The notes under the pieces: model-generated
The model's database searches: none
Told to the model about the DNA's origin: nothing
What the model saw: the letters and a program-made list of their open reading frames with translations, nothing else
Position numbers and translations under genes: made by a program
NCBI GenBank assembly: GCA_040754655.1
Contig: JBFMCE010000077.1
Coordinates: 1-19,039 of the forward strand
Origin: Bdellovibrionota bacterium
Lineage (GTDB): Bacteria > Bdellovibrionota > UBA1018 > UBA923
DNA: 19,039 nucleotides
Direction: 5' to 3'
Shown: in pieces, positions 1,532 through 17,964 of the stretch
How positions within the stretch are numbered: position 1 is the first letter of the stretch
Layout: the number at the start of each line of letters is the position of its first letter

Positions 1532-2932
1532 TTATCTAGAGCAATGCCACGCCCACGGTATCGGATCGGGTGATTGCGGCAGCGGCTTGGGCCAGGGTTT
1601 GCATGTGAATCCAAGCTCTTCGAAAACGGTGAGTTTTTTCCAGTCGCTGGCGACTCCGATGCTGCGCAGCCCCTTGGTGTGAACTGCAAGGTTCGCGCGA
1701 TCAGTTTGGGTGGCTGCGCTGGGCACATGCCGAGGCAAGTAAAAGATCGCAGACCATTGGGGCGAGAGCATCTTTTCGATGCCTTCAATTTGGCCCGCTT
1801 TGTAAATCGCCTCGATCCGGTTCCACCAAGTGCGTTTCACTAGATAGGTGACCGTGTTTGAAGAAAGGTGCACGAAGAAGAGCGTCCCGGCCATGATCCA
1901 AACTGGCTTGGATAGCTTCTTGAGCAAGTCCCTTCCGTAGGCTAGCGTAGCGAATGCCGCGACTTGCCCCGTATAAACCAGCGGCGCGATAAATCTTTTT
2001 TCTTTATGTTCGACCGCGCAAAATACGGCGACAAAGAACGCATTCAAGAACCAGATCGCCCGCAAGGGTTCGGGAATTTTCTTCCAGACCCAGGGCAGAA
2101 GAAAGAATGAGAGAAGCGCCGGCACCCCAGTGATGTCAAAGTAGTAAAAGACATGGGTGTACCACGGGCTTACTCCCCACTGGTTTCCAATCTCTTCCAC
2201 CAAATTCACTCGCGCATGCCCTAGTACGCTGTGAAACCAGGTTCCCCAGGTGAGTTTATCCACCCAACCCACGGCTAAGATGAACGGAAGCACGCCTACC
2301 GCAAGATGAAGGGCTTCTTTGACCCCTGACCGAGCGAGCTGCCATATCCCAAACGCAAGTCCTGCAACAGCGACGTCAATCTTCAAGGCGAGCGCGCATC
2401 CAAAGAACGCGCCCGATAAAATATAGCCACGACTTTTCACCAAATAAGGCGCGGTGGCGCCGGCAAGCACGAAAAGCGCTCCGGCCATTTCACCATGCGT
2501 GTGAAAGCCGCAGTAAATCGAGTAGGGCCATAGAGCCACAAGCCAGGCCGCCAGGCCTGCGAACATCAGATCTTCTTTGTGTCTGCCTTGCGTGAGCAAA
2601 CCCCGAATCGAGGCGAAGACCAGCGGAACTGAGAGCGAGGAAAGCGCTCCATGCCAAGAGCGTACGAAGGCATTGATCCAAATGGGTTCCTTGATTCCGA
2701 TGAGCTCAGCCAGACGCATCGGCAGAGAGACCAACCCCGGATAAATCCACGAACGCAGGCCTTCTTTCCATTCAGTGGCCTGCGACCAAAAACCATTCAC
2801 TAGAAAGTTCGCGGGCTCGATGACCTGCCAATGCTCATCCATGTAGCGAAACCCATGCGCGTACCAAGGTATGAGCACACGAATCGCGAGTCCCACCACG
2901 AATGCCAGTCGCCAGTTTAAAAGTATGCGCAT
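1532..2932 (-). CDS. PIG-B/Alg9-like (GT22, GT-C fold) polyprenol-phosphate-sugar-dependent glycosyltransferase, probably a mannosyltransferase
   Basis: Multi-TM protein. Motifs DEHWQVIEPA, EWKEGLRSWIYP, WGVSPWY and HKEKRFI parallel the PIG-B motifs DEyWQslE, WEW..glRSy.yP, yG.hPWhwY and HKEfRFi. Confidence 0.8.
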   Translation of the reverse strand: MRILLNWRLAFVVGLAIRVLIPWYAHGFRYMDEHWQVIEPANFLVNGFWSQATEWKEGLRSWIYPGLVSLPMRLAELIGIKEPIWINAFVRSWHGALSSLSVPLVFASIRGLLTQGRHKEDLMFAGLAAWLVALWPYSIYCGFHTHGEMAGALFVLAGATAPYLVKSRGYILSGAFFGCALALKIDVAVAGLAFGIWQLARSGVKEALHLAVGVLPFILAVGWVDKLTWGTWFHSVLGHARVNLVEEIGNQWGVSPWYTHVFYYFDITGVPALLSFFLLPWVWKKIPEPLRAIWFLNAFFVAVFCAVEHKEKRFIAPLVYTGQVAAFATLAYGRDLLKKLSKPVWIMAGTLFFVHLSSNTVTYLVKRTWWNRIEAIYKAGQIEGIEKMLSPQWSAIFYLPRHVPSAATQTDRANLAVHTKGLRSIGVASDWKKLTVFEELGFTCKPWPKPLPQSPDPIPWAWHCSR

Positions 2933-2993
2933 GTTTTTAGATCTTAGACATTTTTAGTTGGCGAAAAAAGTGATTTATGGTGAATCTCAAGAC

Positions 2994-4076
2994 ATGGAGT
3001 TGATTTTCAGGCAGTTTCGTTCAGAAGGAGGGTGCAATTCGTTCATCTTTGCTGACGCAAAGACGCGACAAGCATGCATCATTGATCCGCGGGCCGATGA
3101 GGTTGACAGTTACGAATCTTTCGTCCATTCACGCAAGCTCGATGTTCGTTATGCGATCGATACTCATACCCATGCCGATCATTACTCGGGAACTCATCTT
3201 ATCGCAGATCGGTTGGGAGCGGCGATCGTGATGAGTGCTCAGACCAAGAGCGCAAGGCCTTCTCTGAAATTGAAAGACGGTCAGACCCTTGAGCTTAGCA
3301 GCGGATTTGCTATTGAAGCGCTTTATACGCCCGGACATACGCCCGATAGCGTTTCCTTCTTGTTTCGCGGCGATTGGGGAAGCGCCGTCTTCACTGGTGA
3401 CACTCTCTTTATCGGCAGCAGCGGCCGCACCGATTTTCCTGAAGCCGATGCGAGTGAGCAGTACGAGAGCATCTATAATCGCTTGGGAAAGCTTGAAGAT
3501 TCGACTTGGGTCTTGCCGGGCCATGATTATTCAAATCTTCTCTTCTCGACCATCGGATGCGAGAAGAAGACCAACCCGCATTATTTATTCGCAGACAAGG
3601 AAGCGTTCGTCCGCATGAAAAAGACCGAAGCGCTAGAGGTCTCGGGAGTGGTGCCGCATATTGTTGAGTTTAATTTGCACTCTAAGCCGTCAAACCGCCC
3701 TCGGTCGGGTGCTCATACGATGTGCTCAAGCGGTTGCGTGGCCGCTGATGCTACCATGGCAAGGAATTCGGTGGCCGAATTTAGCGAAGCGCTTCGGGCT
3801 GAGAAGAACAGGGGCGCGCTTTTCTTGGATGTGCGTGAGCCCGAAGAACTGAAGATGGGTTTTATTCCGGGCACTGAGAACCTTCCGCTGAGCGAGCTTT
3901 TCATGCATTGGCGTGAACTTCAGTCCGCAAGCAAGGTCTACATCACATGTCAGCGCGGAAATCGAAGTCAGTTTGCCGCTCAAACTTTGATGCGTTTGGG
4001 CTTAAGGCATGTCGTGAATGTGGATGGCGGTTTTCTCGCATGGGCCGCGGCGCAGTTGCCAATTCAGCGCTCTTGA
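2994..4076 (+). CDS. MBL-fold persulfide dioxygenase (ETHE1-like) fused to a C-terminal rhodanese domain
   Basis: IFRQF N-terminus, THTHADH metal motif, TPGHT, FTGDTLFIGSSGRTDF, LPGHDY and STIGCEKKTNP. Rhodanese part has LDVREPEE and the active-site loop CQRGNRS. ATG 2994 preferred over TTG 2958. Confidence 0.88.
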   Translation: MELIFRQFRSEGGCNSFIFADAKTRQACIIDPRADEVDSYESFVHSRKLDVRYAIDTHTHADHYSGTHLIADRLGAAIVMSAQTKSARPSLKLKDGQTLELSSGFAIEALYTPGHTPDSVSFLFRGDWGSAVFTGDTLFIGSSGRTDFPEADASEQYESIYNRLGKLEDSTWVLPGHDYSNLLFSTIGCEKKTNPHYLFADKEAFVRMKKTEALEVSGVVPHIVEFNLHSKPSNRPRSGAHTMCSSGCVAADATMARNSVAEFSEALRAEKNRGALFLDVREPEELKMGFIPGTENLPLSELFMHWRELQSASKVYITCQRGNRSQFAAQTLMRLGLRHVVNVDGGFLAWAAAQLPIQRS

Positions 4077-4567
4077 ATGATGCCGTCGATCACTTGAGGC
4101 TGCTCTTCTTTCGGTTTTTGGTACTGGATGCTGCGAGCGCCTTCAGGCCCTAGCATTGGGCCCGTGGTTGCATTGATGTTGCGGTCTTGGATCTTCCTTG
4201 CGCCGTCTGGAGTTGTTGCCGCAGGTTCGCGACTTTTGGCGTCGTTTGATTTGTTGCCCAAGAGTTTGTTCAAACTCTTTTTCACACCGCCATAGGCAGC
4301 CTTGATCGCGCTTTTCCAATTCCGAAGGTGCCCTGCGTGCTCGGCATCCAAGGCCCGCCTTGCGGGCCCAAAATGTTTTTGGTTGATTTGAGCGATTTGC
4401 TCTGAAGTGGCATTGACCCCAAGTTGCTTGATCTCTTCGTATTGGGCTTGGTTGGCTTCAGCCAGAGTTCTAAGGGCGCTTTCGGCCCGTGCAGCATGGG
4501 TGAGTAGGTTTAAACCGAACAAGAGTAGTAAAAAAAACGTTACATTTCGTATACTTAAATAAGGCAT
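4064..4567 (-). CDS. Secreted hypothetical protein (167 aa)
   Basis: ATG at 4567 gives MPYLSIRNVTFFLLLLFGLNLLTHAARA/ES, a signal peptide with an AxA cleavage site. The longer TTG start at 4633 coincides with the predicted promoter. The 3' end overlaps the convergent gene by 13 bp. Confidence 0.75.
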   Translation of the reverse strand: MPYLSIRNVTFFLLLLFGLNLLTHAARAESALRTLAEANQAQYEEIKQLGVNATSEQIAQINQKHFGPARRALDAEHAGHLRNWKSAIKAAYGGVKKSLNKLLGNKSNDAKSREPAATTPDGARKIQDRNINATTGPMLGPEGARSIQYQKPKEEQPQVIDGIIQER

Positions 4568-4604
4568 TTGAGGCGCCCCCAGCGCACTTATACTTGACTT
4601 TTTT

Positions 4605-4633
4605 ATTCTATAGTTAAATGGTACACTTTGCAA
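4605..4633 (-). promoter_or_regulatory. Sigma-70-type promoter for the 4064..4567 gene
   Basis: Minus strand reads TTGCAA (-35), 17 nt spacer, TAGAAT (-10). An extended -10-like TGgTACACT (4619-4627) on the plus strand could drive the divergent 913-aa gene. Confidence 0.6.
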
Positions 4634-4663: not shown

Positions 4664-7405
4664 ATGATCGCATCTGTTTTTGCCCTGGCTTTGGCTAAGG
4701 TCAACTCATCAATACTTCGGCTTTGCATGGCGGTGGTGGTGTTTTCGATCGCCCTACCGGCATGGTCACAACATAAAACAAACCGGCGCTCCGCGCTTGA
4801 GAACTTGAGTCGATACGAAAAAGTGGGTGCCGAGGCGACTCCTCCGCCCAACGTGAATTTCGACAATGAGGCCGCGAAGGCGGAAGCGGGTTTCCCTCAT
4901 GTCGATCCCAAATCTGTGACTTCGGTTGACGTGAAATGCCGAGAAGAAGGGCCTGTGATCATGGGCAATCACCCCTGCCGAGACAAAGGAGCAACACCAG
5001 GCTATTTGAGCCGAGTTGAGAAATTCGTCAAAGAAGCGTTGGCCATCGAAAATTACAATTATTACATCGGATCAACCACGAACTTCGCCACTGGTATTGG
5101 GTCTCTCAGCGCAACCCCCGTGTGCAATATCAGTCAGGGCGAAGAGCACCGCAATCTACTGCCCAAAAACTCGGGCTGCGGCAAGTGGTGCAATGTTCGC
5201 GTTGAGACCTCGTCGATATTGGGTTTGGTGACCGTTGGCGGAGACCTCTTTGTCGACGATAAGAATGGCGGCTGCAGCCGGGAATACGGTTGGTTTCGCG
5301 GCGCCTTCGTTCAGGTCATGAACTACTACAAAGAGAAAGTCTTCGCTGAGTTCAGGAACAAGAAGGTTCAATTGGTCGATATTGAAGGAGTGAAGCCTTG
5401 CGCTGGCATCGCAGCTGATGTGATCAGGGCCCAAGCTGCCACCGATAACGCGCTTGAAAGAGTGGTTGCGGTGCAAGGAATTGAGCGGGCCGCGGCGGCA
5501 AGTTGCCCGCATCTTGAGAAGAGCCGAGGTCTCGCTAGCCTTGGCAAGAAGACCCCATTTGAAAATGAACTGAACTCACATGGGGCGTGCTTCATGGGGA
5601 TGGCGCAGCTGCGATTGGCCTCATTGTGGTCTGGATTTCTGGGATGCGAAATCCGTTGGCGGGCTTCGAGGGACTTCGAGCAAGAGTTCGGATCAATTCA
5701 ACAATGGGTCAATGAGACGAAAGTCGCGATTTCAGATCGCTGCAAGAGTTTCGCGAGCAGTTGCGAGAAGGGAAATGGGGATTCGGCCCTTGCCGGCAAC
5801 CAAAGTTGCGATGACAAGATGCGTACTCGTCTTTTTATGCAATGCTATCAAAAAGAAGTCCCGCTCTATCTCAAAAATAAACTGCAGAGATATAATACCT
5901 CGACGCCAGCGGAGTTTCCGCAAGATTTCTCGAAAAATGACGAGCCCACGGGTGATTTTGGGATTTCATTTGCGGCGTTGAATGTCAAAGCGCTTTTATC
6001 TGCGATGAGTCGCAGGCGGCGAAATCGAAAGCTCGGCAGAGCATTGGTTGCATTGGTCGCGATGGCGCTCGCGTTTTCAGGGTGCAGCGGCGATGACCCT
6101 GAGATCGCCTGTCAGCCCTGCAATCCGTCGCTGGGAAGTCAGCAAACAGGTTGTATTTATCAGGCGTGCATGCAAACGATGTACTTCTGCCTGCAGTTTG
6201 ACCGCATCACCAGGAAAGAGTCGAAGACGAACGTCGTTGATCCGAACGTGGTTCTTGACCGCGAGTTCGGCGAGAACGCGACCAATACGATTTGCATCAC
6301 GGCCAAAGATCAAAAGTCTGACGTCTTGACGATGGGCAAACTCAGGGAGGAAAAGTTCCAGGCCGAGATACAAGAAGCGTACCGGACTTCGTTCAATGCG
6401 ACTACCCGCACCTACGATTGCGGAGACGATTGTCTCTCAAGCCTTGATCCGAACAATGCGCAGGCTCAGGCTAGAAAAACTTGGGAAGCCTTTTTAGAGA
6501 CCCATAAGCTAAAAGCAGAATCCATTTTCAAGGCCGCGGGTGACTGCCGAGAAATCGGGGGATTGAGCCGAACCGAGGACGATCTCGAAAAATACGCTGA
6601 AACAAGCGGTAGCGCGAGCAATAACGTCAGCCGTTTGAATTCTCATGACATCGCGGCCCTTCAAAAGGTGGTCGGACAGCTTGGGGTTGACGCGGGCGGG
6701 TTCGGTGCTGGGGCGAACTGCCCTCAAACTCCCGGAACAACCAATATCGATGGCAGGGGGGGTGTTACCCTCGATGAGCTTGCAGGAGATTTAGCGGGCC
6801 TCAATCGTGTGCTGGGAGGAGAGAACCTTGAAATCGATGAACATAAACCTTCGCTCGCTGGCGGAAAAGGAGGCGGTAGCTCGACCGCCGCTGATCGCGG
6901 AGGAAGCCCTAATAAACCTTCATTGAGTTCGGTGTCTCGCGCCCCAGGCTCGCAGTCAGGGTTGCCCACGGTGGCGCTCACAGGCTCTTCGGCAAGTCAG
7001 GGAGGGGCGCAAGGTATGCCACAATTCAAGGGCCTGGAGGGAGGCGGCAAGCAGGCGGGTCTGGAAGGATCGCCCGCTTTAGGTGAGCATCAAGCGGGAA
7101 CTCTCACCGCCGGAACGGCGTTCGGAGAGTCAGCCGCCGGTGGGGGCGGAGGGGCGCAGTCTAAATCATTTTCATTTGGATCGCAGCCAGACCCTTCAAT
7201 CAACGGAGGTGGCGCCACCGACGTTAAACTCGGCGGCGCGTCTGGCCCTGGCTCAGTGTTTTTGGGCGGAGTCGACCTCGATTCCTATTTCGCCCGTGTC
7301 GGAAAGACTTCTCTCTTCGAAGTGGTGAATAAGCGAATGAACAAGTGGGGAAACGAGATCGAAGTCGAGAGGCAAAAGGGCGAATTCCGCAGGTTATCGC
7401 GATGA
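4664..7405 (+). CDS. Large Cys-rich exported hypothetical protein (913 aa) with an internal lipoprotein signal peptide and a Gly/Ser-rich C-terminal linker
   Basis: GGGGA-type RBS. N-terminal signal (..MAVVVFSIALPAWS/Q), a 14-Cys domain, internal MSRRRRNRKLGRALVALVAMALAFSG/C, a 10-Cys domain, a Gly-rich tract and a short helical C-terminal motif. Confidence 0.85.
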   Translation: MIASVFALALAKVNSSILRLCMAVVVFSIALPAWSQHKTNRRSALENLSRYEKVGAEATPPPNVNFDNEAAKAEAGFPHVDPKSVTSVDVKCREEGPVIMGNHPCRDKGATPGYLSRVEKFVKEALAIENYNYYIGSTTNFATGIGSLSATPVCNISQGEEHRNLLPKNSGCGKWCNVRVETSSILGLVTVGGDLFVDDKNGGCSREYGWFRGAFVQVMNYYKEKVFAEFRNKKVQLVDIEGVKPCAGIAADVIRAQAATDNALERVVAVQGIERAAAASCPHLEKSRGLASLGKKTPFENELNSHGACFMGMAQLRLASLWSGFLGCEIRWRASRDFEQEFGSIQQWVNETKVAISDRCKSFASSCEKGNGDSALAGNQSCDDKMRTRLFMQCYQKEVPLYLKNKLQRYNTSTPAEFPQDFSKNDEPTGDFGISFAALNVKALLSAMSRRRRNRKLGRALVALVAMALAFSGCSGDDPEIACQPCNPSLGSQQTGCIYQACMQTMYFCLQFDRITRKESKTNVVDPNVVLDREFGENATNTICITAKDQKSDVLTMGKLREEKFQAEIQEAYRTSFNATTRTYDCGDDCLSSLDPNNAQAQARKTWEAFLETHKLKAESIFKAAGDCREIGGLSRTEDDLEKYAETSGSASNNVSRLNSHDIAALQKVVGQLGVDAGGFGAGANCPQTPGTTNIDGRGGVTLDELAGDLAGLNRVLGGENLEIDEHKPSLAGGKGGGSSTAADRGGSPNKPSLSSVSRAPGSQSGLPTVALTGSSASQGGAQGMPQFKGLEGGGKQAGLEGSPALGEHQAGTLTAGTAFGESAAGGGGGAQSKSFSFGSQPDPSINGGGATDVKLGGASGPGSVFLGGVDLDSYFARVGKTSLFEVVNKRMNKWGNEIEVERQKGEFRRLSR

Positions 7406-7538
7406 TTTTTGGGCGCGTTGCCTCGATTTTTTTTGCGCCGCACATAAACTTTGGCGGTTTACTAATAGTAAGTCTACTCAATCGTAAGTGACTTATTTTG
7501 ATTCATGATGCGGTAAATAAATTTAGTTTTTGATGCAA

Positions 7539-7564
7539 ACTGTCGTTGTTTATTTCTCGACAGT
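7539..7564. promoter_or_regulatory. Inverted repeat, candidate transcription-factor site
   Basis: ACTGTCG-N12-CGACAGT is a perfect 7-bp inverted repeat in AT-rich intergenic DNA upstream of the 7608 ATG. Confidence 0.4.
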
Positions 7565-7607
7565 CCCAGAATTTTTTCCTCTCATGCCAAACATGGAGGA
7601 AAAAATC

Positions 7608-8081
7608 ATGCGTATTCTTTTTTCAGTGGTAGCTTTAATGGGACTTAGTTCATCATTTGCTTTGGCCGACACGTCGATGTTCAATACCGACAACAGGGAT
7701 GGTTGCATCCCTTATCGATGTAACGTGCGTGCGGAAGAAAAAGGCGCTCGTTGCACCGTAAAGGGCGAGATCTGCTCATTGAGAGGTTCGGAGGCAGCCG
7801 TTGATCAACGAGGCGGACCCAGGATCTCAATGGAAGTTGATTGCACCAACGGATTTGAACTCGAAGATCGTCGCGTAGAAGTATTCAGTTCGACAGATCG
7901 CGCTCTTCTCCGCGGGGAAGAAGATGATAAATCTGCCGACCTCGAACTTCGCGCAAATGGTTCTAGCAACGATACCTTTCGCGCTCACCTGACAACGGCG
8001 GTTGATGGCGGATCTTCTTACGAGTATCACGGTCGCTGCCACATCGGTGGTCGCAACAACGATCGTCCTCGAGCTGAGTAA
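7608..8081 (+). CDS. Secreted Cys-containing hypothetical protein (157 aa)
   Basis: GGAGG RBS at 7595-7599 and ATG 7608. Signal peptide MRILFSVVALMGLSSSFALA/D. Six Cys in a beta-rich mature region. Confidence 0.85.
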   Translation: MRILFSVVALMGLSSSFALADTSMFNTDNRDGCIPYRCNVRAEEKGARCTVKGEICSLRGSEAAVDQRGGPRISMEVDCTNGFELEDRRVEVFSSTDRALLRGEEDDKSADLELRANGSSNDTFRAHLTTAVDGGSSYEYHGRCHIGGRNNDRPRAE

Positions 8082-9137: not shown

Positions 9138-10064
9138 ATGACTTCTCTAGAGCCGCAGGCCGTGTCGCAGCAAAACCGGGGTGCCGATGCCCGATATTAT
9201 TCCGAGAACGGGTACGTCGTGTGTTCGAACCTTATCCCTCATGGTTTCATCGATCGACTCCTTGAAAGTTATGAGAAAGAGATCCGTCCTTCTAATCATC
9301 CGTTTTACCGGCAGAGTTCGGGCAAGTATGAAGTCAATAAAAGAAATGAACACGGTTACGTCGTTCAGTCTTTTCTCGATATCCACGACTACGAAAAGTT
9401 TAAGGCTTTCTCGGAGAGGTCGCTGGATCTGTTCACCTGCCCGAGGCTTTTATCGAAGCTCAGCGAAATCACGGGAGCGCAGTCTTTCAACTTGATGCAG
9501 ACCATGCTTTTTGATGCAAACACCGCTACTCAGCCTCACCAAGACTGGTGGTACCTTGATACCGTTCCCAATGGACATCTGATCGCCGCATGGATCGCTA
9601 TGGAAGACATTGATGAGCGGGCTGGCAGATTCTATGTTTTAAGAGACACCACCCAGGTCGACCTTCATAGCGATACGCCGAACTTGCCGCACCTGACTTG
9701 GATTCGGCGCGTCGAGGAATATCTGCGCGGCCATCCGGAAAAAGTCGTGGCTCCGGCGCTGAAGAAAGGCGACGTGCTTTTCTGGAATTCACGAACTATT
9801 CATGGGGCGTTGCCAACGCAAGACCCGAGTTTTTCAAGGAAGTCGCTTACGGCGCATTATATCCCTTCGACCATGAAGTTTGGAAACCTCTTCAAAGTAA
9901 AAGACTATATTGAGTACAAAGAATTTCGAGGGGTAAAATTTTTCAAGAACCAGCCCGATTACACGTTTTGGAATCACCTGAAGTCCGAGTTTAAGCTCAA
10001 GGCGTACAACTCGCCGCGGCTGCTTAAATTCTTGAGAAGATTTCAGGGAGTGCTGGCCAAATAG
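9138..10064 (+). CDS. Phytanoyl-CoA dioxygenase (PhyH) family Fe(II)/2-oxoglutarate dioxygenase
   Basis: GAAAGGA RBS. Motifs YSENGYVV, PHQDWWY (HxD), AAWIAMEDIDE..G, LKKGDVLFWNSRTIHGA (distal His) and SRKSLTAHY (2OG-binding Arg). Confidence 0.88.
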   Translation: MTSLEPQAVSQQNRGADARYYSENGYVVCSNLIPHGFIDRLLESYEKEIRPSNHPFYRQSSGKYEVNKRNEHGYVVQSFLDIHDYEKFKAFSERSLDLFTCPRLLSKLSEITGAQSFNLMQTMLFDANTATQPHQDWWYLDTVPNGHLIAAWIAMEDIDERAGRFYVLRDTTQVDLHSDTPNLPHLTWIRRVEEYLRGHPEKVVAPALKKGDVLFWNSRTIHGALPTQDPSFSRKSLTAHYIPSTMKFGNLFKVKDYIEYKEFRGVKFFKNQPDYTFWNHLKSEFKLKAYNSPRLLKFLRRFQGVLAK

Positions 10065-10150
10065 GCCGACCTCGGAAGCCGCGCGTATTTTGGCGAAGCT
10101 CTGTTCCTGGGGCCTAATTTAAAAAAGTTGAGTTTATTTCGCCTTGCGAC

Positions 10151-11344
10151 GTGATTTCTCGAAAAGAAGCTTTAGAGTCTCTTCCAATGGAGCCGATGGA
10201 GAGGCGTCATTCCACGAAACCTTCTTATACTGAGCAGAGCTTAGAGCCGCCTTGGACTCTACAACAGTTCATTGGATCATACGAACCGTACATTACCCCT
10301 GAAGTCTTGGTGTTGATCTTTGTTGAAAGCTTGCTTGTCTTGGAAGGGTTTCACCGGCGAGGACGCTTTCATGGAGTGCTAGACGCTCAAAACATATTGA
10401 TTGACCAAGATGGTTTGATCTCGCTTACGACGCCAAAAGGCGTCACGGTCGATCAAATAGCGGCCACCCGCTTCACGGATCTTGTGATGATCGGCAAGAC
10501 TTTTTTCGATCTGATCCTGCGCTACAACCGCAGTCGAGCGAGAATTCACCCGTGGCTAGAGAAAATCCTCTATCGGGCTGGTGGCCGAGAACGAAAGGCG
10601 GGGTACAACACCGCCTGGGATTTGAGGGCCGACCTGCTCGACTTCTTGCAAGAGCTCAGCCTTGAGGGGTTCTTCCTCGTGCATTTCATCGAGGCGCCCG
10701 CTGCGTTCAATCGGTCGGTCGGCATCGTGATGGGCGATCGCCAGGTAAAGCGAGTGGAAAAACTGATTCGGCACCGGCACCGGAAGCAGGCTCTCTCAGA
10801 GCTTTATTTCTTGCTAGAGGTCACCCCTACGAATGTTGCGGCCTCAAAAATATTCTCGAAACTCAAACAAGGAAGGACTTTGCTCCTTGCTCGCATGGCC
10901 TATGTCGCGGCGATCGTCGGTTTGATCGTGCTAGGGGCGTCGGTTTTTTTGGAAAATTACAGAGGCGAGCGCTCGAAGCCCTTGCTTATCGAACCCGTGC
11001 CTGCCAGGAGATCTCCAAATGCAGAGTCTGAATTTGGCGAATCGAACGCCAAGGCGACAGGCTCAATAGAAATTATTCAAAAATCTCGTTCCATCCCTGG
11101 GCTCTCGGTCCTGCATCCCGATAAGGGCCTGGTTTCCCTCGAGCTTGACCCCGATACCTTGGCCTATTTTGACGGAAGGCCAGGTGAAGTGCCCGCCAGG
11201 TCTAACGGAGCGCAGATTTGGCTTTCCGCCGGCACTCATTCAATCACGGTGACAAAGAAGGCCACCCCGCCAGTGATAGGGCAGATCGAGGTCAAGCCAG
11301 GTTCATCGACCGAAATCATCGCTCGACTGGTAGCCAATCCCTAA
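10151..11344 (+). CDS. Membrane-anchored degenerate Ser/Thr kinase-like protein (pseudokinase) with a C-terminal PEGA-like domain
   Basis: FHRRGRFHGVLDAQNILIDQDG echoes the Hanks catalytic loop (HRDLKPxNIL) but lacks the catalytic Asp and DFG. GYNTAWDLRADL resembles subdomain XI. Followed by a helical/TPR-like segment, one TM helix (AYVAAIVGLIVLGASVFL) and a PEGA-like end (LSAGTHSITV). Start codon uncertain. Confidence 0.65.
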   Translation: MISRKEALESLPMEPMERRHSTKPSYTEQSLEPPWTLQQFIGSYEPYITPEVLVLIFVESLLVLEGFHRRGRFHGVLDAQNILIDQDGLISLTTPKGVTVDQIAATRFTDLVMIGKTFFDLILRYNRSRARIHPWLEKILYRAGGRERKAGYNTAWDLRADLLDFLQELSLEGFFLVHFIEAPAAFNRSVGIVMGDRQVKRVEKLIRHRHRKQALSELYFLLEVTPTNVAASKIFSKLKQGRTLLLARMAYVAAIVGLIVLGASVFLENYRGERSKPLLIEPVPARRSPNAESEFGESNAKATGSIEIIQKSRSIPGLSVLHPDKGLVSLELDPDTLAYFDGRPGEVPARSNGAQIWLSAGTHSITVTKKATPPVIGQIEVKPGSSTEIIARLVANP

Positions 11345-11389
11345 AGACTTGCGCCGACCTCCCGAAAAGAGAAGTGTAAGGGAGACACT

Positions 11390-12148
11390 GTGTCGGCTTC
11401 TACTGGGCAAAATTTATCACCGGGCTTTGAATCGCCCTCACGGTTGCTGGTCGTCGTCGTGCCAGCCTACAACGAGAAGACGAACATCGCGGGAGTGCTC
11501 GCTGAGTTGAGCGCTGTGCGTCTTGAGCGTACCACGGTCGAAGTCGTGGTGGTTGACGACGGTTCGACAGATGGCACCGCTGAGTTAGCAAGGCGCCTGG
11601 GAACCGAAGTTGTTTGTTTGCCTTTTAATATGGGAATAGGCATGTCGGTGCAGACCGGCGTTCTTTATGCGTTAAAGCGAGGCGCGGACTTTGTTGTTCA
11701 AGTCGATGGAGACGGTCAGCATGTTCCCGGAGAGATTTCAAAGCTTCTCGCCGTTTTGGAAACGACAAGGAGCGATGTCGTCGTCGGCAGCCGGTTCGCC
11801 CGCAAGAGGCGAGGTGGTTTGGAAAGCACGACTCTGGCGAGGTGGCTAGCCGGGCGTGCTCTTGCAATGGTCGTGCGCTTGCTAACCGGACAGAGGTTTT
11901 CAGATACGACAAGCGGCTTCAGGATCTACACCAGACGAGCGGCCCAATTGGTGGCCCATTCCTACTCTGACGATTATCCCGAGGTGGAAGCGCTCGTAGC
12001 GCTGGTTCGCCGAGGCTTTCAAGTTACCGAGATCGGGGTTCAGATGCGCCGGCGAATCCACGGGAAGAGTTCGATCGGGGCCTGGAAGTCGATTTATTAC
12101 TTCATCAAAGTCATCCTCTCTTCCTGCATTGAGAAGGTGCGCGCATGA
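11390..12148 (+). CDS. Glycosyltransferase family 2 (DPM/DPG-synthase-like, polyprenol-phosphate glycosyltransferase)
   Basis: VVPAYNE, VVVDDGSTDGT, NMGIG, QVDGDGQH, VVGSRF, DTTSGFR and R..GKSS. GGAG RBS before the GTG start. Confidence 0.9.
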   Translation: MSASTGQNLSPGFESPSRLLVVVVPAYNEKTNIAGVLAELSAVRLERTTVEVVVVDDGSTDGTAELARRLGTEVVCLPFNMGIGMSVQTGVLYALKRGADFVVQVDGDGQHVPGEISKLLAVLETTRSDVVVGSRFARKRRGGLESTTLARWLAGRALAMVVRLLTGQRFSDTTSGFRIYTRRAAQLVAHSYSDDYPEVEALVALVRRGFQVTEIGVQMRRRIHGKSSIGAWKSIYYFIKVILSSCIEKVRA

Positions 12149-12516
12149 TCGCATTGGCGGGTCTGCAGCGCATCGAGCTGATCGCAGTGCTTGCTTGCGG
12201 CGTGCTCGCCGCCACGGTTTTCGAGCTCGTGAGAAGGGGAAAGATAAAAGAAAAATATTCGCTGCTCTGGTTTCTGACGGTCGCGTCTCTCTCTATCTTG
12301 TCTCTCAAAAGAGAGTGGCTCCATTCGTTGGCGTCGAGTTTCGGGATTTATTATCCTCCTTCGGCTTTGTTTTTGGCCTTGATCTTCTTCGTTATTTTCA
12401 TCCTGATCCATTTCAGCATGGTTCTCACGAAGCTCATGAATCAAAACCAGAAGCTAGCTCAAAGAGTCGCTCTTCTTGAAGTAGAGGTCTTGCGTGAACA
12501 AAACAAGGCAAGATGA
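12145..12516 (+). CDS. DUF2304-family small membrane protein
   Basis: ATGA overlap with the upstream GT2. LVRRGKIKEKYSLLW, FGIYYPPS and a C-terminal KLAQRVALL coil, with three TM helices. This family is typically adjacent to DPM-like GT2 genes. Confidence 0.8.
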   Translation: MIALAGLQRIELIAVLACGVLAATVFELVRRGKIKEKYSLLWFLTVASLSILSLKREWLHSLASSFGIYYPPSALFLALIFFVIFILIHFSMVLTKLMNQNQKLAQRVALLEVEVLREQNKAR

Positions 12517-13603
12517 TCGATCGCCGTTTGTCTCGGGTAAGTCGGCGCCAGTGACCGTCATCATATTGAACTACAATGGCGCGGACGTCGTTAAGCGCTG
12601 CGTGCGGTCGTTCGCGGCGCAGAGGGTTTTGCCAAAACAGGTCTTATTTATTGACAATGGCAGCAGCGATTTTGATCAAAACGAGTTGCGTTCGTTGTTC
12701 GGGACAAGGTACTCGAGCCGGTTGCGGTTTCTCGCGTTCAAAGAAAATCTCGGATATAGCAAGGGAATGAACCGCGGTTTGGCCTGGGTATTGGCCGAAC
12801 CGAATCCAACCGAATGGATCATGACGCTCAACAACGATACGGCTCTCGAAGAGGATTTTTTCGAGTCGTTGCTTAAGGTGGCCGAAGCAATCAAAGACCA
12901 GAGCAAATGCTCCCTAGGAATGCTCTCACCCAAAGTGTTGTCGATGTCCTCGCCGGACGAACTTGATGCCGCGGGGCTTGTTCTCAGTCTCGATGGCATG
13001 AGTTCCGCGAGGGGTCAGAGAGAGAAAGACCTCCGGCAGTATGATGATAAACTAGAAGTATTGGCTCCGAACGGGGTCTCGGCCATTTACAGGGCCTCGA
13101 TGTTGCGGCAGATCGGATTGTATGACGAGCGATTCGAGGCTTATTGCGAAGACACCGACCTGGGGTTTCGAGCCTGGCTCGCCGGGTGGAACTGCCGGTT
13201 CGAACCAGCGCTGCGCTTGTACCATTCCCGCTCGACAAGCCATGGCAACCACAGTTTGAGAAAGCTCTATTTGGTCGAGCGGAATCATTTCTGGTTCGCC
13301 ATCAAGAATTACCCGGCGCCGCTACTGATCCTTGGGCCCGCGTTCACGGCCTGGCGTTATCTGGTTCAGGCATACAGCATTGCCCGAAAGAGAGGTCAGG
13401 GCAGGGGATTTTCTTTCCAGGCTAAAACCCGCTTTTTGGTGTTTGCCACGCTTCGCGCCTTATTTGACGCTCTTAGAGGCTCTCCCGAGATGTTTCTCGC
13501 TCGGATCAGATTAAGGAGATTGCGAAAACGGTCTGAGATCGAGGTTCTTACGACGCTTTGGAGAGGCCGCCTGAACTTTCAAGAGCTTATCTTGAAAGAG
13601 TAA
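12494..13603 (+). CDS. Glycosyltransferase family 2 (WbbL/rhamnosyltransferase-like)
   Basis: VIILNYNG, IDNGSSD, ENLGYSKGMNRG, LNNDT, IGLYDERFEAYCEDTDLGFRAWLAGW and ERNHFW. Confidence 0.9.
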   Translation: MNKTRQDDRSPFVSGKSAPVTVIILNYNGADVVKRCVRSFAAQRVLPKQVLFIDNGSSDFDQNELRSLFGTRYSSRLRFLAFKENLGYSKGMNRGLAWVLAEPNPTEWIMTLNNDTALEEDFFESLLKVAEAIKDQSKCSLGMLSPKVLSMSSPDELDAAGLVLSLDGMSSARGQREKDLRQYDDKLEVLAPNGVSAIYRASMLRQIGLYDERFEAYCEDTDLGFRAWLAGWNCRFEPALRLYHSRSTSHGNHSLRKLYLVERNHFWFAIKNYPAPLLILGPAFTAWRYLVQAYSIARKRGQGRGFSFQAKTRFLVFATLRALFDALRGSPEMFLARIRLRRLRKRSEIEVLTTLWRGRLNFQELILKE

Positions 13604-15088
13604 GAGGATGAGCGCCAGCAGCGCGAAGCCTGAGATTATTTTCGCAACCGTTTTTACAATCGTATCGCGGAATTTCCAAGCCACCTTGTGCTTTCCTGGC
13701 GGAAGGGACGCCTGAAGGGCCCCGGAACTGGGATGGGTTTCATTGGACTTCAAGATCGTCCCATCGACCACCGTCGTCCATCCGGGATAATCAAAGACAT
13801 TTAGTTGAAGCGTGGTGGTTTGAATCGCCAAGACAACACATTCTATTTGGCCTAACTTTATCTGAGTGCAACGGCTGTCGGCTCTTCCAGAAAGAACCTC
13901 GACCAACTCTTGTCGTTGTTGAGAGGGTGGAATTGAAACCTTCACAGGAATCGGGCTTGCCGCGGGTGCTGAAAGTGAAGCCGAGGTGGCTGACTTTCCA
14001 AGGTAGCCCAGCGCCAGGATCGGAACTAAGATCAGCGCCGCTTTCTTTGATGCCAGTGTTCGCGCGAACCAAACGCCAAGCCAGGTTCCGGTGAGAATGC
14101 ACGATGCCAGAAGGGCGTCGCTGAAGGCCTGCGGAGGGCGAAAGAGATCAAACCAAATCTTTGAAGCGGGATGAATGAGATAAATGCACAATCCAAGAAT
14201 GGGCAACAAGAGCCTCGCATACGGATCAAGCCTTGCATTCCAAAGCCATTTCCACAAACCGCTAATGAGACCAACGCCCCACAAGACACCAAACGAATTT
14301 CTCGGATGTGCCCACTCTTGAATGCTCAAAAACGCATAAGAGCTGGGCAAAAATCGAACAAGGCGATGCTCAAAGAGCGCCGGGATCCAGTAGAATGAGG
14401 CCAAAAGCATTCCCGTTGCCATTGAACCCAGAAGAAGAAACGGTCCTGAAAGCGATCGACGGGAAAGTACGAGGAACAAAACTGTGAGCAGAGCTGCGGT
14501 AAGCGAATAGGCGGGCGGGCATAACCAAAGCGCTGATGTCGCGGCCACGCTTCGCAAGAAAACGAATTTAGACCTGTCTTTATTCAAACCGACGAGCCCA
14601 AAAACGAACCAAGGCAAACACGCAAGAAAGAGAAGGGTTTCCAATCGAGAATCTTGCAAGGCTCTTAATGTTGCGGGCGCAAAAATAAGGCTCGCACCCC
14701 CTAAAAACGACAGCCCCATGCGTCTGAAAGCTTGCTCGTATTTAAGGGCTTCGCTGAGCAACATAAACAGGCCGTAGGCAGCGGCAAAGAGCAGGAAGAA
14801 TACGTAGATTCGCGCGGAAAGCTGAGGGCTTGAAGTCATCGCATGGAAAAGTTCTAAGGGATAAGAAACGAGAGGGGACCTAAAAGTGAATTCAGGGCTT
14901 CCAAAGCCATGGTTTGCTTCAAAGTTCCAACTTGGGATCAAGTTCCCCTGAGCGATATTCTGATGAAAGTGTCGGATAGACGAAACGTGCCGGTCAAAAG
15001 TCGGATGGGTGAATCTCAGCGCCCCCGCGGCCGCGAAAGCCATTAAAAAACCAAAAAATAGCCGCGTGAAAGTCGTCTTTGGCCTCAT
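13511..15088 (-). CDS. Polytopic membrane protein, YfhO / 6-pyruvoyl-tetrahydropterin-synthase-related family (GT-C-like)
   Basis: About 11-12 TM segments. PSWNFEANHGFGSPEFTFRSPL resembles P.W...n.GyG.P.f.fY.PL. Also LASFYWIPALFE, a periplasmic domain with FDYPGWTTVVDG and LPPGKHKV, and a final TM. Coupled to the upstream DPM synthase by an ATGA overlap. Confidence 0.75.
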   Translation of the reverse strand: MRPKTTFTRLFFGFLMAFAAAGALRFTHPTFDRHVSSIRHFHQNIAQGNLIPSWNFEANHGFGSPEFTFRSPLVSYPLELFHAMTSSPQLSARIYVFFLLFAAAYGLFMLLSEALKYEQAFRRMGLSFLGGASLIFAPATLRALQDSRLETLLFLACLPWFVFGLVGLNKDRSKFVFLRSVAATSALWLCPPAYSLTAALLTVLFLVLSRRSLSGPFLLLGSMATGMLLASFYWIPALFEHRLVRFLPSSYAFLSIQEWAHPRNSFGVLWGVGLISGLWKWLWNARLDPYARLLLPILGLCIYLIHPASKIWFDLFRPPQAFSDALLASCILTGTWLGVWFARTLASKKAALILVPILALGYLGKSATSASLSAPAASPIPVKVSIPPSQQRQELVEVLSGRADSRCTQIKLGQIECVVLAIQTTTLQLNVFDYPGWTTVVDGTILKSNETHPSSGALQASLPPGKHKVAWKFRDTIVKTVAKIISGFALLALILLLFQDKLLKVQAASPKRRKNLDLRPFSQSP

Positions 15089-15825
15089 GCCGCCGGAAAA
15101 AGCCGACCACGCCGTTTAAGTTCCCGGAACCGCAGAACCATCAAAGAGGTTTTGATCAACGTTGTTGAGTTCAATTTCGTGACGCCTATTCTGCGATCAA
15201 TAAAAACGATCGGCACTTCAACGATCTTGAACCCTTTCATCGAGCATTTATAGAGGATTTCGAGCACTATTGAAGGGCCTGTCGAGATAAGATTGTCTAA
15301 CCCGATTTGCTTAAGCGCATTTCGGCGAAAACACCGGTATCCGCTCGAGACATCCCGAACTTTCAAACCGAGCAAGGTTCGAACATAGAAACCCGCCAGC
15401 TTGGTGACGACCTGCCGGTACGGCCCGCGATCATCGTCCGAACCTCCCTCCACGAACCTGCTCCCAAGAACGACATCGGCGCCGCTTGCTGCCGCGTTGA
15501 GCAACTCCGGGATGTACTTGGGGTCGTGAGAAAAATCGGCATCCATTTCAATGACGAAATCAGAGTCGCTTGCGAGGGCCTCTTTAAATCCGACGATCCC
15601 CGCGCTTCCTCTTCCTCGTTCATTCTTGCGCGTGATCAATCTTACTTTCGAGTTTTTTGCCGCATATTCCGCTACAGCCTCGCCGGTCCCATCGGGTGAG
15701 TTGTCGTCTACGACCAAAACATGAATCTCTTGGCCCGCCACTTTTAATGACAGAATCGACTCGATCAGACGGCTAATGTTCCCCCGCTCGTTGTAGGTTG
15801 GGATCATAATCGTTGTTTTGCTCAT
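15085..15825 (-). CDS. Polyprenol-phosphate mannose synthase (DPM1/Ppm1-like GT2)
   Basis: IPTYNERGNI, VVDDNSPDGTG, GRGSA...GF, EMDADFSHDPKYIP, VLGSRFVEGG, DVSSGYRCFRR and EVPIVFIDRRIG. Confidence 0.88.
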   Translation of the reverse strand: MSKTTIMIPTYNERGNISRLIESILSLKVAGQEIHVLVVDDNSPDGTGEAVAEYAAKNSKVRLITRKNERGRGSAGIVGFKEALASDSDFVIEMDADFSHDPKYIPELLNAAASGADVVLGSRFVEGGSDDDRGPYRQVVTKLAGFYVRTLLGLKVRDVSSGYRCFRRNALKQIGLDNLISTGPSIVLEILYKCSMKGFKIVEVPIVFIDRRIGVTKLNSTTLIKTSLMVLRFRELKRRGRLFPAA

Positions 15826-15932
15826 ATCTCTAACGAGTTAACATGTACTCGATAGAAATTACACTTGGTTTTCAGTTTCAGGCTATTATAAGCTCGCCAC
15901 TACACGTTTTCATTTGTCAGCAGAGAGAGCGC

Positions 15933-17114
15933 ATGGGGAAATACAAATTCGATTGTTTGGACTTTCGCGGCTATAAGCCCTGCGTCGCAAAGAAAACTTG
16001 CGACACTTGTGATCAATACGAACCCTGGGATCGAAAGATTGTCATCGTAAAACTAGGCGCCCTGGGCGATGTGATGCGCACGACGCCGGTGCTCTATGCC
16101 TTGAAGCGCAAGTATCCGCGAGCGCAAATCACTTGGGTCACTAAGCGCAACGCGAAAGACATGCTCGAAACGAGCCCTCGCATTCACCGTTTGGTTTATG
16201 TCGACCAGCCCGACGGCGGAGGCATGTTGCGTTTGCTGGCGGAAGAGTTTGATGAAATGCACTGCTACGATAAAGAAGACGCGGCCATCTCTCTTGCCAC
16301 CCTGATCAAAGCCAAAAAGAAGTACGGATTTCATATGAATTCGCTGGGGCAAATGGCTCCTTTGAACGAGGCTTCGGAATACTGTTTTGATCTTGGGCTT
16401 TCTGACGAACTGAAGTTCCATAAAAACCAGAAGACCTATCAGGAGTTGACCTACGACTGTTCCGAGCTTCAGGTGCCGGATTCCATGGATCCCTATGATT
16501 TTAATTTACGTGACTCTGATCGAGAGGCTGCACGGTTTTTAATGACGAGGTTGCGTTGGGACACTAAAAGAGGCGTCAGCCGTCCTCCGGTCATTGGGTT
16601 GAATACAGGCTCTGGAAAGGTTTTTCGGACCAAGCAATGGTTAGAGGAGTATTTTCTCGAGCTTAGCAAGCAGCTCAAAAAGAAGCTCAAAGCCCGAATT
16701 ATCTTATTGGGAGGCGAAGATGAAGATGCCCGCAATAAGCGGCTTTCAGCCAAACTTAAGGGAATCGCGTATTATCCCGGTGGATCCTTTTCAATAAGGC
16801 AGTTTGCCGGTCTTCTTGAGCAATGTGACTTGTTGGTCACGGGCGATACCTTAGCAATGCACTTGAGTTTAGCAGTCGGAACTCCTCCAATTGTTTTATT
16901 TGGGTCTACTTGTGAACAAGAAGTTGATCTCTATGGAACGGGCCAGAAACTTGTTTCAAAGCCCGCGTGTGCCCCATGTTACAAAAACGAGTGTGATCAG
17001 CCAGATTGGATGAGGTGTATGAAAGACATCACCCCCGCTCAAGTATTACAGGCTGCAACCCAAATTCTTCGTATTCGAGGTAATTCTACTCGTCCCCCTC
17101 GACGTCCTGCTTGA
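15933..17114 (+). CDS. Glycosyltransferase family 9 (ADP-heptose:LPS heptosyltransferase-like) with N- and C-terminal Cys clusters
   Basis: KLGALGDVMRTTP, YPRAQITWV, IGLNTGSG...KQW, LLVTGDTLAMHLSLA and LFGST. Cys clusters CLDFRGYKPC..CDTC and CAPCYKNEC..C. ATG 15933 preferred over 15843. Confidence 0.88.
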   Translation: MGKYKFDCLDFRGYKPCVAKKTCDTCDQYEPWDRKIVIVKLGALGDVMRTTPVLYALKRKYPRAQITWVTKRNAKDMLETSPRIHRLVYVDQPDGGGMLRLLAEEFDEMHCYDKEDAAISLATLIKAKKKYGFHMNSLGQMAPLNEASEYCFDLGLSDELKFHKNQKTYQELTYDCSELQVPDSMDPYDFNLRDSDREAARFLMTRLRWDTKRGVSRPPVIGLNTGSGKVFRTKQWLEEYFLELSKQLKKKLKARIILLGGEDEDARNKRLSAKLKGIAYYPGGSFSIRQFAGLLEQCDLLVTGDTLAMHLSLAVGTPPIVLFGSTCEQEVDLYGTGQKLVSKPACAPCYKNECDQPDWMRCMKDITPAQVLQAATQILRIRGNSTRPPRRPA

Positions 17115-17136
17115 GTAACCTAAAAGTTGGTGTTAT

Positions 17137-17544
17137 ATGCACCCTCCTATGGGAAAACAGGTAGGAATTTTTATTCGTGAAATGCGTGAAAAACGCGGTC
17201 TAAGTCAAGGCGATGTCGCAAGACTGCTGAAACTCAAGACGGCTCAGTCTATTAGCAACATTGAGAGAGGAGTTTCTCCGCTTCCGCGCACGAAGATCAA
17301 GCGCTTGGCGGATATCCTTGGAATCAGAAAGAGCGAAATTGTAACCATCGTTTTACGAGAAGTTCAAGACCGCTACTCCAAGGTTGTTGGGGTACAAGGT
17401 GGCTCAATCTTGGTTTCCAGTGGCTTGAAGTCCGATGAGTTTGAGCTGCTCCAAGGTCTCGCTGAGAGATTGCGTGAGTCCAAGAGTGGACAGCGTGCAG
17501 TACTCAAAAAGCAAATGAGAAAAATCGTTAGCTACAACGCTTAA
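17137..17544 (+). CDS. XRE-family helix-turn-helix transcriptional regulator
   Basis: IREMREKRGLSQGDVARLL...QSISNIERGVSPLP is a classic HTH_XRE motif. The true start may be ATG 17149. Confidence 0.88.
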   Translation: MHPPMGKQVGIFIREMREKRGLSQGDVARLLKLKTAQSISNIERGVSPLPRTKIKRLADILGIRKSEIVTIVLREVQDRYSKVVGVQGGSILVSSGLKSDEFELLQGLAERLRESKSGQRAVLKKQMRKIVSYNA

Positions 17545-17939
17545 CGATCCTTTTTTACACGATTTTTCGTGTTCTTCTTCTCAAGACTTTTGTGTGCTTG
17601 TTGATGGTACTGGTCCTTTTGGGATTGGACCATCAACAATGAGTGCATAGCTTTAAGTTCAGCAATTTCATATTGTGATAGGGCTTGGTCCGTCCAGCCT
17701 TTCGACTCATAGGTTTGTGCTAGCGCCAGGTGAGCCGCGGGGTTGTCAGGGTCTTGCCTTGTTGTGTCTGCGAAGAAATAGAGGGCTGAGTCGAGTTTTC
17801 CTTTTTTGAGGGCGACTTTTCCTTTTTCATAACTTGAAGCGAGTTTCGTTTGATGGAAGTGGTCCAGGCCGATTGCGGCGACCAGCAGTAAAAGAAAGAT
17901 GGCTGGTTTTTCGTATTGCTTCAGAGTTGCCAGGCGCAT
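17541..17939 (-). CDS. Membrane-anchored tetratricopeptide-repeat protein
   Basis: N-terminal TM (AIFLLLLVAAIGL) followed by TPR-like repeats YEKGKVALKKGKLDSALYFF..DPDNPAAHLALAQTYESKGWTDQALSQYE. Confidence 0.8.
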   Translation of the reverse strand: MRLATLKQYEKPAIFLLLLVAAIGLDHFHQTKLASSYEKGKVALKKGKLDSALYFFADTTRQDPDNPAAHLALAQTYESKGWTDQALSQYEIAELKAMHSLLMVQSQKDQYHQQAHKSLEKKNTKNRVKKDR

Positions 17940-17964
17940 GCTTTAACTTTAAACGATAATCTCA

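Follow-up and report, generated by a model that had tools for sequence, protein, structure and literature searches.

The stretch of DNA analyzed here (the window; 19,039 nucleotides (nt) from a draft Bdellovibrionota genome, contig JBFMCE010000077.1) carries a single uninterrupted open reading frame (ORF) at positions 4664 to 7405 of its forward strand, which encodes 913 residues followed by a stop codon, contains no internal stops, and joins a putative secreted protein to a putative lipoprotein through a predicted membrane hairpin. The features of this ORF and its immediate borders, in window coordinates, are as follows.

9 nt upstream of the ATG at 4664, + strand: Shine-Dalgarno (SD)-like GGGGGA
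4664..7405, + strand: the whole fused ORF, with N protein, membrane hairpin and lipoprotein in a single chain
4664..4768, + strand: N-terminal Sec-type signal peptide, residues 1-35, with a site resembling those of signal peptidase I (SPI) (hydropathy; site by eye)
4769..5953, + strand: N domain, residues 36-430, containing 14 Cys and belonging to a conserved family (alignments A1 and A2; AlphaFold2 (AF2) model)
5957..6007, + strand: H1, a short hydrophobic stretch, residues 432-448, proposed as a stop-transfer segment or 'topology inverter' and characteristic of fused forms only
6011..6040, + strand: Arg/Lys-rich loop, predicted cytoplasmic, residues 450-459, doubling as the n-region of the internal signal
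6041..6085, + strand: H2, the h-region of the internal lipoprotein signal with the lipobox FSGC; Cys474 at 6083-6085
6083..6763, + strand: first part of the putative mature lipoprotein, residues 474-700, partly folded, with 10 Cys besides the lipobox Cys
6824..7279, + strand: Gly/Ser/Ala-rich disordered region, residues 721-872 (predicted local distance difference test (pLDDT) <50; low-complexity columns in alignment A3)
7274..7402, + strand: conserved C-terminal helix motif, consensus DPxDYFxR ... LFKIVERRY (alignment A3 and a motif hidden Markov model (HMM))
7411..7423, + strand: terminator-like hairpin and T run directly after the stop codon (consensus match only)

All signal and transmembrane segments were called by hydropathy rules set for this analysis, and the SPI cleavage site was placed by eye. 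By these rules residues 1-35 form the SPI-like signal that an initial interpretation of the letters (the sequence-only reading) had placed there, with a hydrophobicity of 2.8 in the 11-residue window at residues 20-30 and a small-residue site at the end. The cysteine pattern given in that reading, 14 + 1 (lipobox) + 10, is likewise correct, with one further cysteine in the signal: the total of 26 comprises C21 in the signal, 14 residues between 92 and 394, the lipobox Cys474 and 10 residues between 483 and 686. The in-frame junction itself, that is, the Met at 6005, the Arg run and the lipobox Cys at 6083, is present in the translation, and H1 of this ORF ends in the Met in question (Met448). 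The region that follows has the composition of a prolipoprotein signal, with six Arg or Lys residues within residues 449-459, a strongly hydrophobic segment at 460-470 and then the lipobox FSGC leading to Cys474, with a small residue at position -1. It departs from such signals in its location, at residues 448-474 of 913 instead of the N-terminus of the product.

In the full-length AF2 model, helices are predicted at residues 436-448 and 461-468 with low confidence, as is to be expected of membrane segments. Beyond the hairpin, pLDDT values of 55-83 are found over residues ~540-640 and values below 50 over 721-872, followed by helices at 872-878 and 884-912 (pLDDT 72-88), in support of the Gly-rich linker and terminal helix that had been proposed. 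The domain-hairpin-lipoprotein anatomy described for ORF 4664-7405 is real and is confirmed in every detail. On the model, the lipoprotein appears mostly disordered apart from its conserved C-terminal helix. Helices encoded at 6770-6811 (residues 703-716) and at 7274-7402 are confident (pLDDT blocks of 83-87 and 72-88, respectively) and are surrounded by long disorder; the model leaves room for the idea that these helices may dock on the N domain.

The protein as a whole matches no Pfam or NCBIfam family at E<=0.01, of the 8000 candidates scored in a word-indexed search at similar length none but the protein itself was recovered, and a whole-protein search for related loci in the contig collection returned no relative. 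Whole-protein six-frame searching gave a match in 9 of 41 related genomes, the source genome counted. With the N-domain profile (alignment A1), 56 of 116 genomes of the same order were matched, the window ORF itself at E = 1.8e-150, and a profile search of 1.84 billion representative proteins assembled an N-domain family of 236 members at E<=0.001. In a 301-genome sample of the phylum all 26 matches (E<=1e-5) lay inside the order of the source and none was obtained from the 240 genomes of other orders. Among the genomes searched, the module is confined to a single order of uncultured Bdellovibrionota.

The organization of the module was compared over 67 sources, namely the window and the loci of 66 relatives with their flanks, in which 69 N-domain ORFs were classified as fused (17), split (37) or, on account of contig ends or a divergent motif, unassigned (15). 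A locus was called split when the C-terminal motif occurred in the next same-strand ORF after the stop codon of the N protein. The gap between the N stop and the C start in these loci ranges from -35 to +46 nt, often as a 4-nt overlap, and the split N proteins are ~340-500 residues long, while the split C proteins (~250-500 residues) have their own Met and basic n-region. Within the C-terminal motif, for which the motif HMM matched 55 ORF segments, an Asp, a Tyr and a Phe are invariant or nearly so in alignment A3. Since the two halves are found elsewhere as adjacent separate genes, ORF 4664-7405 is, on this comparison, a fusion of a conserved two-gene module composed of a putative secreted N protein of ~400 residues and a putative lipoprotein. 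The source genome also contains a split paralogous pair, on contig C51 (2359-3669 and 3657-4520, both on the + strand), in which an N protein of 436 residues without an H1 tail overlaps by 13 nt with a 287-residue lipoprotein bearing the same C-terminal motif; a single cell thus harbours the fused as well as the split form. Homologues of each half are therefore not always two genes, and the fusion with its RRRR-lipobox junction recurs in frame across numerous independent assemblies, in keeping with the single translation product that had been proposed.

In one relative (locus L014, genome G002, contig C2, ~2832-3103) the N and C frames overlap by ~270 nt, and the C frame, when read upstream of its Met, contains an H1-like stretch and a basic run. 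A former fusion may have been frameshifted at this locus, either recently or as an artefact.

The junction was defined as H1 (rich in Leu, Phe, Gly and Ala), an Arg/Lys run and a signal-like H2, usually followed by a small residue and Cys, and this rule was applied to the best 150 of the 236 representatives, a long form being one whose chain continues for more than 150 residues past the N domain. Every fused relative read among the loci has the three-part H1, Arg/Lys and H2 junction. Among the best 150 representatives 52 are long, and the junction is found in 47 of these, with Cys right after H2 in 43, as compared with a complete junction in none of the 98 short representatives. Five long proteins were missed by the rule: P0051, in which the junction can be recognized by eye with a weaker H1; P0069, P0130 and P0143, which have other architectures without a lipoprotein part; and P0095, considered below. 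Over 56 distinct junctions the median lengths are 13 residues for the uncharged run of H1, 14 for the loop and 16 from H2 to Cys, and the first basic position is Arg in 50 and Lys in 6. The loop is overwhelmingly basic, with 349 Lys and Arg against 16 Asp and Glu over the 47 fused junctions, and the position preceding the Cys is mostly Gly, Ala or Ser. The column of Cys474 is at least 90% conserved in the alignment of the 47 fused proteins, which bears out the lipobox assignment of the sequence-only reading. Split and fused forms satisfy a strict lipobox rule at similar rates (split C proteins, 28 of 37; fused loci, 11 of 17; fused representatives, 34 of 47), against a background of 54 of 975 windows in N domains.

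The split N proteins present the complementary picture, 36 of 37 having no H1 and Arg/Lys tail. The exception, L076 (genome G075, contig C20), is identical with representative P0103; it ends 17 residues past the basic run and is followed by the lipoprotein gene with a 13-nt overlap. Five of the 98 short representatives match the H1 and Arg/Lys part of the rule, of which P0103 and P0114 have it as a terminal tail and three have it inside the N domain. The two tailed proteins have the appearance of transitional forms between the fused and split states, or of frameshifted fusions, and as read they show that H1 can apparently serve as a genuine C-terminal tail.

A six-frame scan of the 3.78-Mb source genome found 15 ORFs of at least 350 residues that satisfy the junction rule, 4 of them without any other membrane-like segment; of these 4, by eye, only ORF 4664-7405 has a genuine Arg run and lipobox. 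The junction arrangement is beyond chance because it is unique in this genome scan and because the same junction occurs in distant relatives.

The arrangement is best read as a polyprotein of the Sec pathway, and we consider it probable that H1 acts as a stop-transfer 'topology inverter' behind which the internal signal inserts normally, so that Lgt and LspA can produce a free lipoprotein. In this scheme the N-terminal signal would direct the N domain across the inner membrane, H1 (residues 432-448) would halt transfer, and the Arg/Lys run (450-459) would be kept in the cytoplasm, as basic loops are according to the established positive-inside rule. The segment 460-473 would then insert with its N-terminus in and its C-terminus out, as in an ordinary lipoprotein signal peptide, and the C part would be exported; Lgt would lipidate Cys474 and LspA would cut before it, giving a mature lipoprotein of the same kind as the split-gene product. 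The N protein would stay tethered via the H1-loop-H2 hairpin, unless trimmed further. Without H1, the internal hydrophobic segment would itself become a stop-transfer sequence, so that the Arg run would end up periplasmic and the C part would remain cytoplasmic. The topology-inverter reading would explain why H1 occurs only in fusions, why the Cys is retained, why the loop is basic and why fused and split genes interchange.

The machinery for such processing is encoded in the source genome, which has one LspA (PF01252) and two Lgt (PF01790), all matches above cut-off; lspA adjoins one lgt copy on contig C91 (~6657-7851, - strand), and the other lgt lies on contig C10. The sequence-only reading had proposed out-in-out threading of one product, followed by a cut into an N protein and a lipoprotein, and the in-silico tests support this proposal; topology, lipidation and cleavage are what we infer from the comparative evidence.

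The dependence of H1 on fusion was also considered on a tree of the N domain, built from 61 rows after those with E above 1e-8 or with fewer than 180 aligned residues had been dropped, and unrooted. In this set H1 and the Arg/Lys run are found in 15 of 15 fused rows versus 1 of 44 split rows, and such a restriction to fused rows is what a topology-restoring element predicts. Fused and split states are mixed on the tree, with 12 parsimony changes, of which at least 3 are forced by well-supported branches.

A number of observations weigh against the proposed mechanism. The N-domain tree is weakly resolved, the fused label is no more clustered on it than shuffled labels, and the well-supported independent contrasts between fused and split forms are only 3, all as predicted (sign test p = 0.25). 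By raw counts H1 and fusion are strongly linked, and the link has been gained or lost on several occasions, but it is not statistically proven on the tree. H1 is short, its uncharged run varying widely around the median, and in the present ORF it is only moderately hydrophobic, with an Asn and a Lys inside, a weakness that the sequence-only reading had already acknowledged and with which the hydropathy agrees. The N-terminal hydrophobic signal exceeds the threshold in 36 of 46 fused representatives. Fused protein P0095 (752 residues), alone among the fused members read, has an internal lipoprotein signal with neither H1 nor an Arg run before it; either its gene is miscalled or broken, or the topology rule may have a real exception here. 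The Cys is absent from 4 of the 47 fused junctions, and among the loci the fused L067, L085 and L101 have no lipobox Cys by eye and show SPI-like ends instead, so that the cut need not always be made by LspA. Finally, a literature search whose reach excluded ~1.7 million PubMed Central articles and most subscription papers found no published action of LspA on an internal signal, and no paper on an internal lipobox or an internal lipoprotein signal; a passage of bioRxiv 10.1101/2022.09.15.508085 deals with an ordinary lipoprotein signal and has no bearing on the matter.

Several of the same observations bear on the rival that survives best, in which the hairpin forms and the chain is left uncut, giving an inner-membrane protein with two spans, both of whose domains would lie in the periplasm and whose Cys474 would be unmodified or lipidated only. 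The evidence on topology is identical for this explanation and for the processed polyprotein, the junctions without Cys are accommodated by it, and the name of the most similar NCBIfam model (discussed below) speaks of anchoring, not of processing. It is nevertheless doubtful, as the Cys and its preceding small residue are kept in fused forms at about the rate seen in split forms, where they make up an ordinary lipoprotein site. Moreover, the C protein of a split pair is a free lipoprotein while its N partner is unanchored, and the repeated switching between fused and split states is most easily explained if both give rise to the same mature products.

The sequence-only reading had also likened H1 and the Arg run to C-terminal sorting signals of the GlyGly-CTERM, PEP-CTERM and MYXO-CTERM types, and a second alternative is that they constitute such a signal, cut or re-attached by a dedicated membrane enzyme, perhaps alongside LspA. 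The resemblance in shape stands: a short hydrophobic stretch rich in Gly, Leu and Phe precedes RRRR, and in P0103 and P0114 the chain ends soon after H1 and the Arg/Lys run. It does not extend further than shape, since in this ORF the element lies at residues 432-456 of 913 and not at the C-terminus, has no signature motif, and shows no conserved Pro-Glu-Pro in the junction position table. Neither rhombosortase (TIGR03902, E<=0.001) nor exosortase (PF09721) was found in the genome, which is 90% complete, and no CTERM model appears among the NCBIfam matches of five junction peptides (E<=10). Only 65 of 3536 ORFs in the genome end in a hydrophobic stretch with Arg/Lys; these are mostly ordinary long spans and do not form an expanded class. 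As the tail is missing from nearly all split N proteins, the N protein does not need it, and an enzyme-sorted tail is accordingly an improbable account of the junction.

Still less probable is that the long frame is incidental, the lipoprotein being made from an internal start near Met448 and the read-through product being irrelevant or degraded. Met448 directly precedes a perfect lipoprotein signal, and the split forms show the C part working as a separate gene. A purine-rich motif is absent before the ATG at 6005, however, as had been pointed out from the sequence. Among the 17 fused loci no SD-backed ATG, GTG or TTG is found in the loop, and in 10 of them there is no such codon whatever; a Met in or beside the loop is seen in 13 of 47 fused representatives, and an SD-like motif precedes 24 of 37 split C genes. 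The lack of SD-backed loop starts makes independent initiation of the lipoprotein unlikely as its source in fused genes. The conservation of H1 in fused forms only would also be pointless were the long product irrelevant.

An assembly or sequencing artefact, in which a lost stop codon or a frameshift joined two genes, has a negligible chance of being the explanation: the genome is a draft of 196 contigs and the overlap in L014 could reflect a frameshift in either direction, but the same in-frame junction is present in 16 other genome loci and in 46 other representatives less than 50% identical to one another, and an artefact would not add a conserved H1 and Arg run.

The polyprotein reading can be set beside several known systems, the closest of which is the NCBIfam model NF058595 ('invert_tail', lipo-invert putative C-terminal anchoring domain), the top match for five of five junction peptides. 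The alignment covers profile positions ~23-40 through 72-75, corresponding to H1, the basic loop and the lipoprotein signal, and the name by itself suggests the same idea, a lipoprotein-type signal used after topology inversion. The best match to the model in the whole source genome is this junction. The scores, 20.7-21.1 bits for the window ORF and 12.9-23 for four relatives, fall below the cut-off of 37, and the cut-off is exceeded in none of the 301 genomes of the phylum; the sub-threshold matches that were examined are mostly ordinary N-terminal lipoprotein signals read together with an upstream non-coding frame. The model also differs in describing a C-terminal domain of 113 positions, ~38 of them past the Cys, as compared with 440 residues and a motif of their own here. 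A literature search found no paper on 'lipo-invert' or 'invert_tail'. Compared by name and profile score, the junction seems to work as NF058595 appears to, without being a member of it.

Ordinary prolipoproteins, which are handled by Sec, Lgt and LspA and recognized by patterns of the PS51257 type, share with the junction the basic n-region, the h-region and the lipobox Cys, and it is to these that the split relatives belong. The difference lies in the position of the signal, here at residues 448-474 inside the chain and behind an exported domain and a stop-transfer segment.

Parallels to the proposed processing exist among the envelope polyproteins of viruses, including alphavirus E2-6K-E1, bunyavirus Gn-Gc and flavivirus C-prM, in which a stop-transfer segment is followed by an internal signal. 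These resemble the present case in having a membrane span, a basic cytoplasmic loop, a second segment that serves as the signal of the next protein, and a cut on the far side of the membrane. They differ in being processed in the eukaryotic endoplasmic reticulum by complexes of the signal peptidase I type, whereas in the present bacterial system LspA is predicted to make the cut after lipidation. A bacterial precedent is the FbcH cytochrome b/c1 precursor of Bradyrhizobium, which is cut at an internal signal peptide into two proteins. It is a membrane precursor whose internal export signal gives rise to two proteins, as is proposed for the ORF described here; unlike the latter, FbcH has a polytopic upstream partner, so that no inverter is needed, and the cut is made by leader peptidase and not by LspA.

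Lipoprotein signals are N-terminal in the textbook description, and joining two exported bacterial proteins in one chain should not work, as the second signal would then point in the wrong direction. H1 would be a simple natural fix for this problem, present only when needed. The evidence from relatives indicates that a lipoprotein signal used internally behind what looks like a dedicated topology inverter is a real and conserved arrangement, whose mechanism is read from comparison. A broader proposal is that a hydrophobic stretch of ~13 residues and an Arg clamp together make up a portable 'topology-inverter' cassette of bacteria by which two separately exported proteins can be produced as one Sec-translocated chain, with LspA acting as a polyprotein-processing protease at an internal lipidated Cys, and we regard the arguments for and against this as evenly balanced. 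The same even chance may be given to the further suggestion that in this Bdellovibrionota family the cassette appears whenever the secreted protein is fused to its lipoprotein partner and disappears whenever the two are split, which would amount to a repeated natural experiment on the limits that membrane topology sets to gene fusion. If the predicted cleavage does take place, it would extend the known substrates of Lgt and LspA to internal sites, provide a bacterial counterpart of viral envelope polyprotein processing, and offer a compact design element by which two periplasmic or surface proteins could be made at a fixed 1:1 ratio. There is also a warning for annotation, in that predictors reading only N-termini miss internal-signal lipoproteins of this kind.

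The fold of the N domain is confidently modeled by AF2 (pLDDT 86.4, predicted template modeling (pTM) score 0.84). Foldseek returned no match for it in the PDB and none in BFVD (E<=0.001), and a wide VIA-align search gave a best Z of 5.1, for helical hairpins only. Sequence profiles of alignments A2 and A3 retrieved nothing from the PDB below E 0.001; the best PDB match of A3 (E 0.0018) was discarded as an artefact of the Gly linker. The ESM Atlas gave no usable feature match, and its structural rows all had template modeling (TM) scores below 0.3 by query. A complex prediction pairing the N domain with the lipoprotein's C-terminal motif, run without controls, scored 0.13 against a mark of 0.32 and speaks neither for binding nor against it.

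Apart from the upstream gene position, the genes around the module differ by clade, including genes resembling 2-oxoacid dehydrogenase acyltransferase and UvrA, an acyl-CoA dehydrogenase and others, and these neighbours give no clue to function. One further feature lies immediately upstream in the window.

4064..4633, - strand: divergent small secreted protein of 189 residues; similarly sized and placed genes are found repeatedly upstream of the module

Upstream neighbours on the opposite strand form clusters of 20, 6, 4 and 4 loci, and five examples scanned had no Pfam family. The example of the cluster of 6 loci is an AhpC/TSA protein, so that this cluster is an unrelated gene.

Also upstream of the module, at 2958-4076 (+ strand), the window encodes a protein combining a metallo-beta-lactamase fold with a rhodanese domain, and the same gene precedes the module in loci L011, L015 and L017. 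Directly downstream, at 7530-8081 (+ strand), lies a gene for a small Cys-containing protein that matches no known family and has a signal-like hydrophobic stretch near its N-terminus; this gene is not conserved beside the module in other loci. Further along the window, from 9138 to 18957, lies a dense envelope-glycan cluster encoding a PhyH-like dioxygenase, three GT2 glycosyltransferases, a GT-C-like membrane protein, a GT9 heptosyltransferase-like protein, a helix-turn-helix (HTH) regulator, a tetratricopeptide repeat (TPR) protein and an RmlD-like reductase. On the other side of the module, at 1532-2932 (- strand), is a gene of the GT22 (Alg9-like) mannosyltransferase family.

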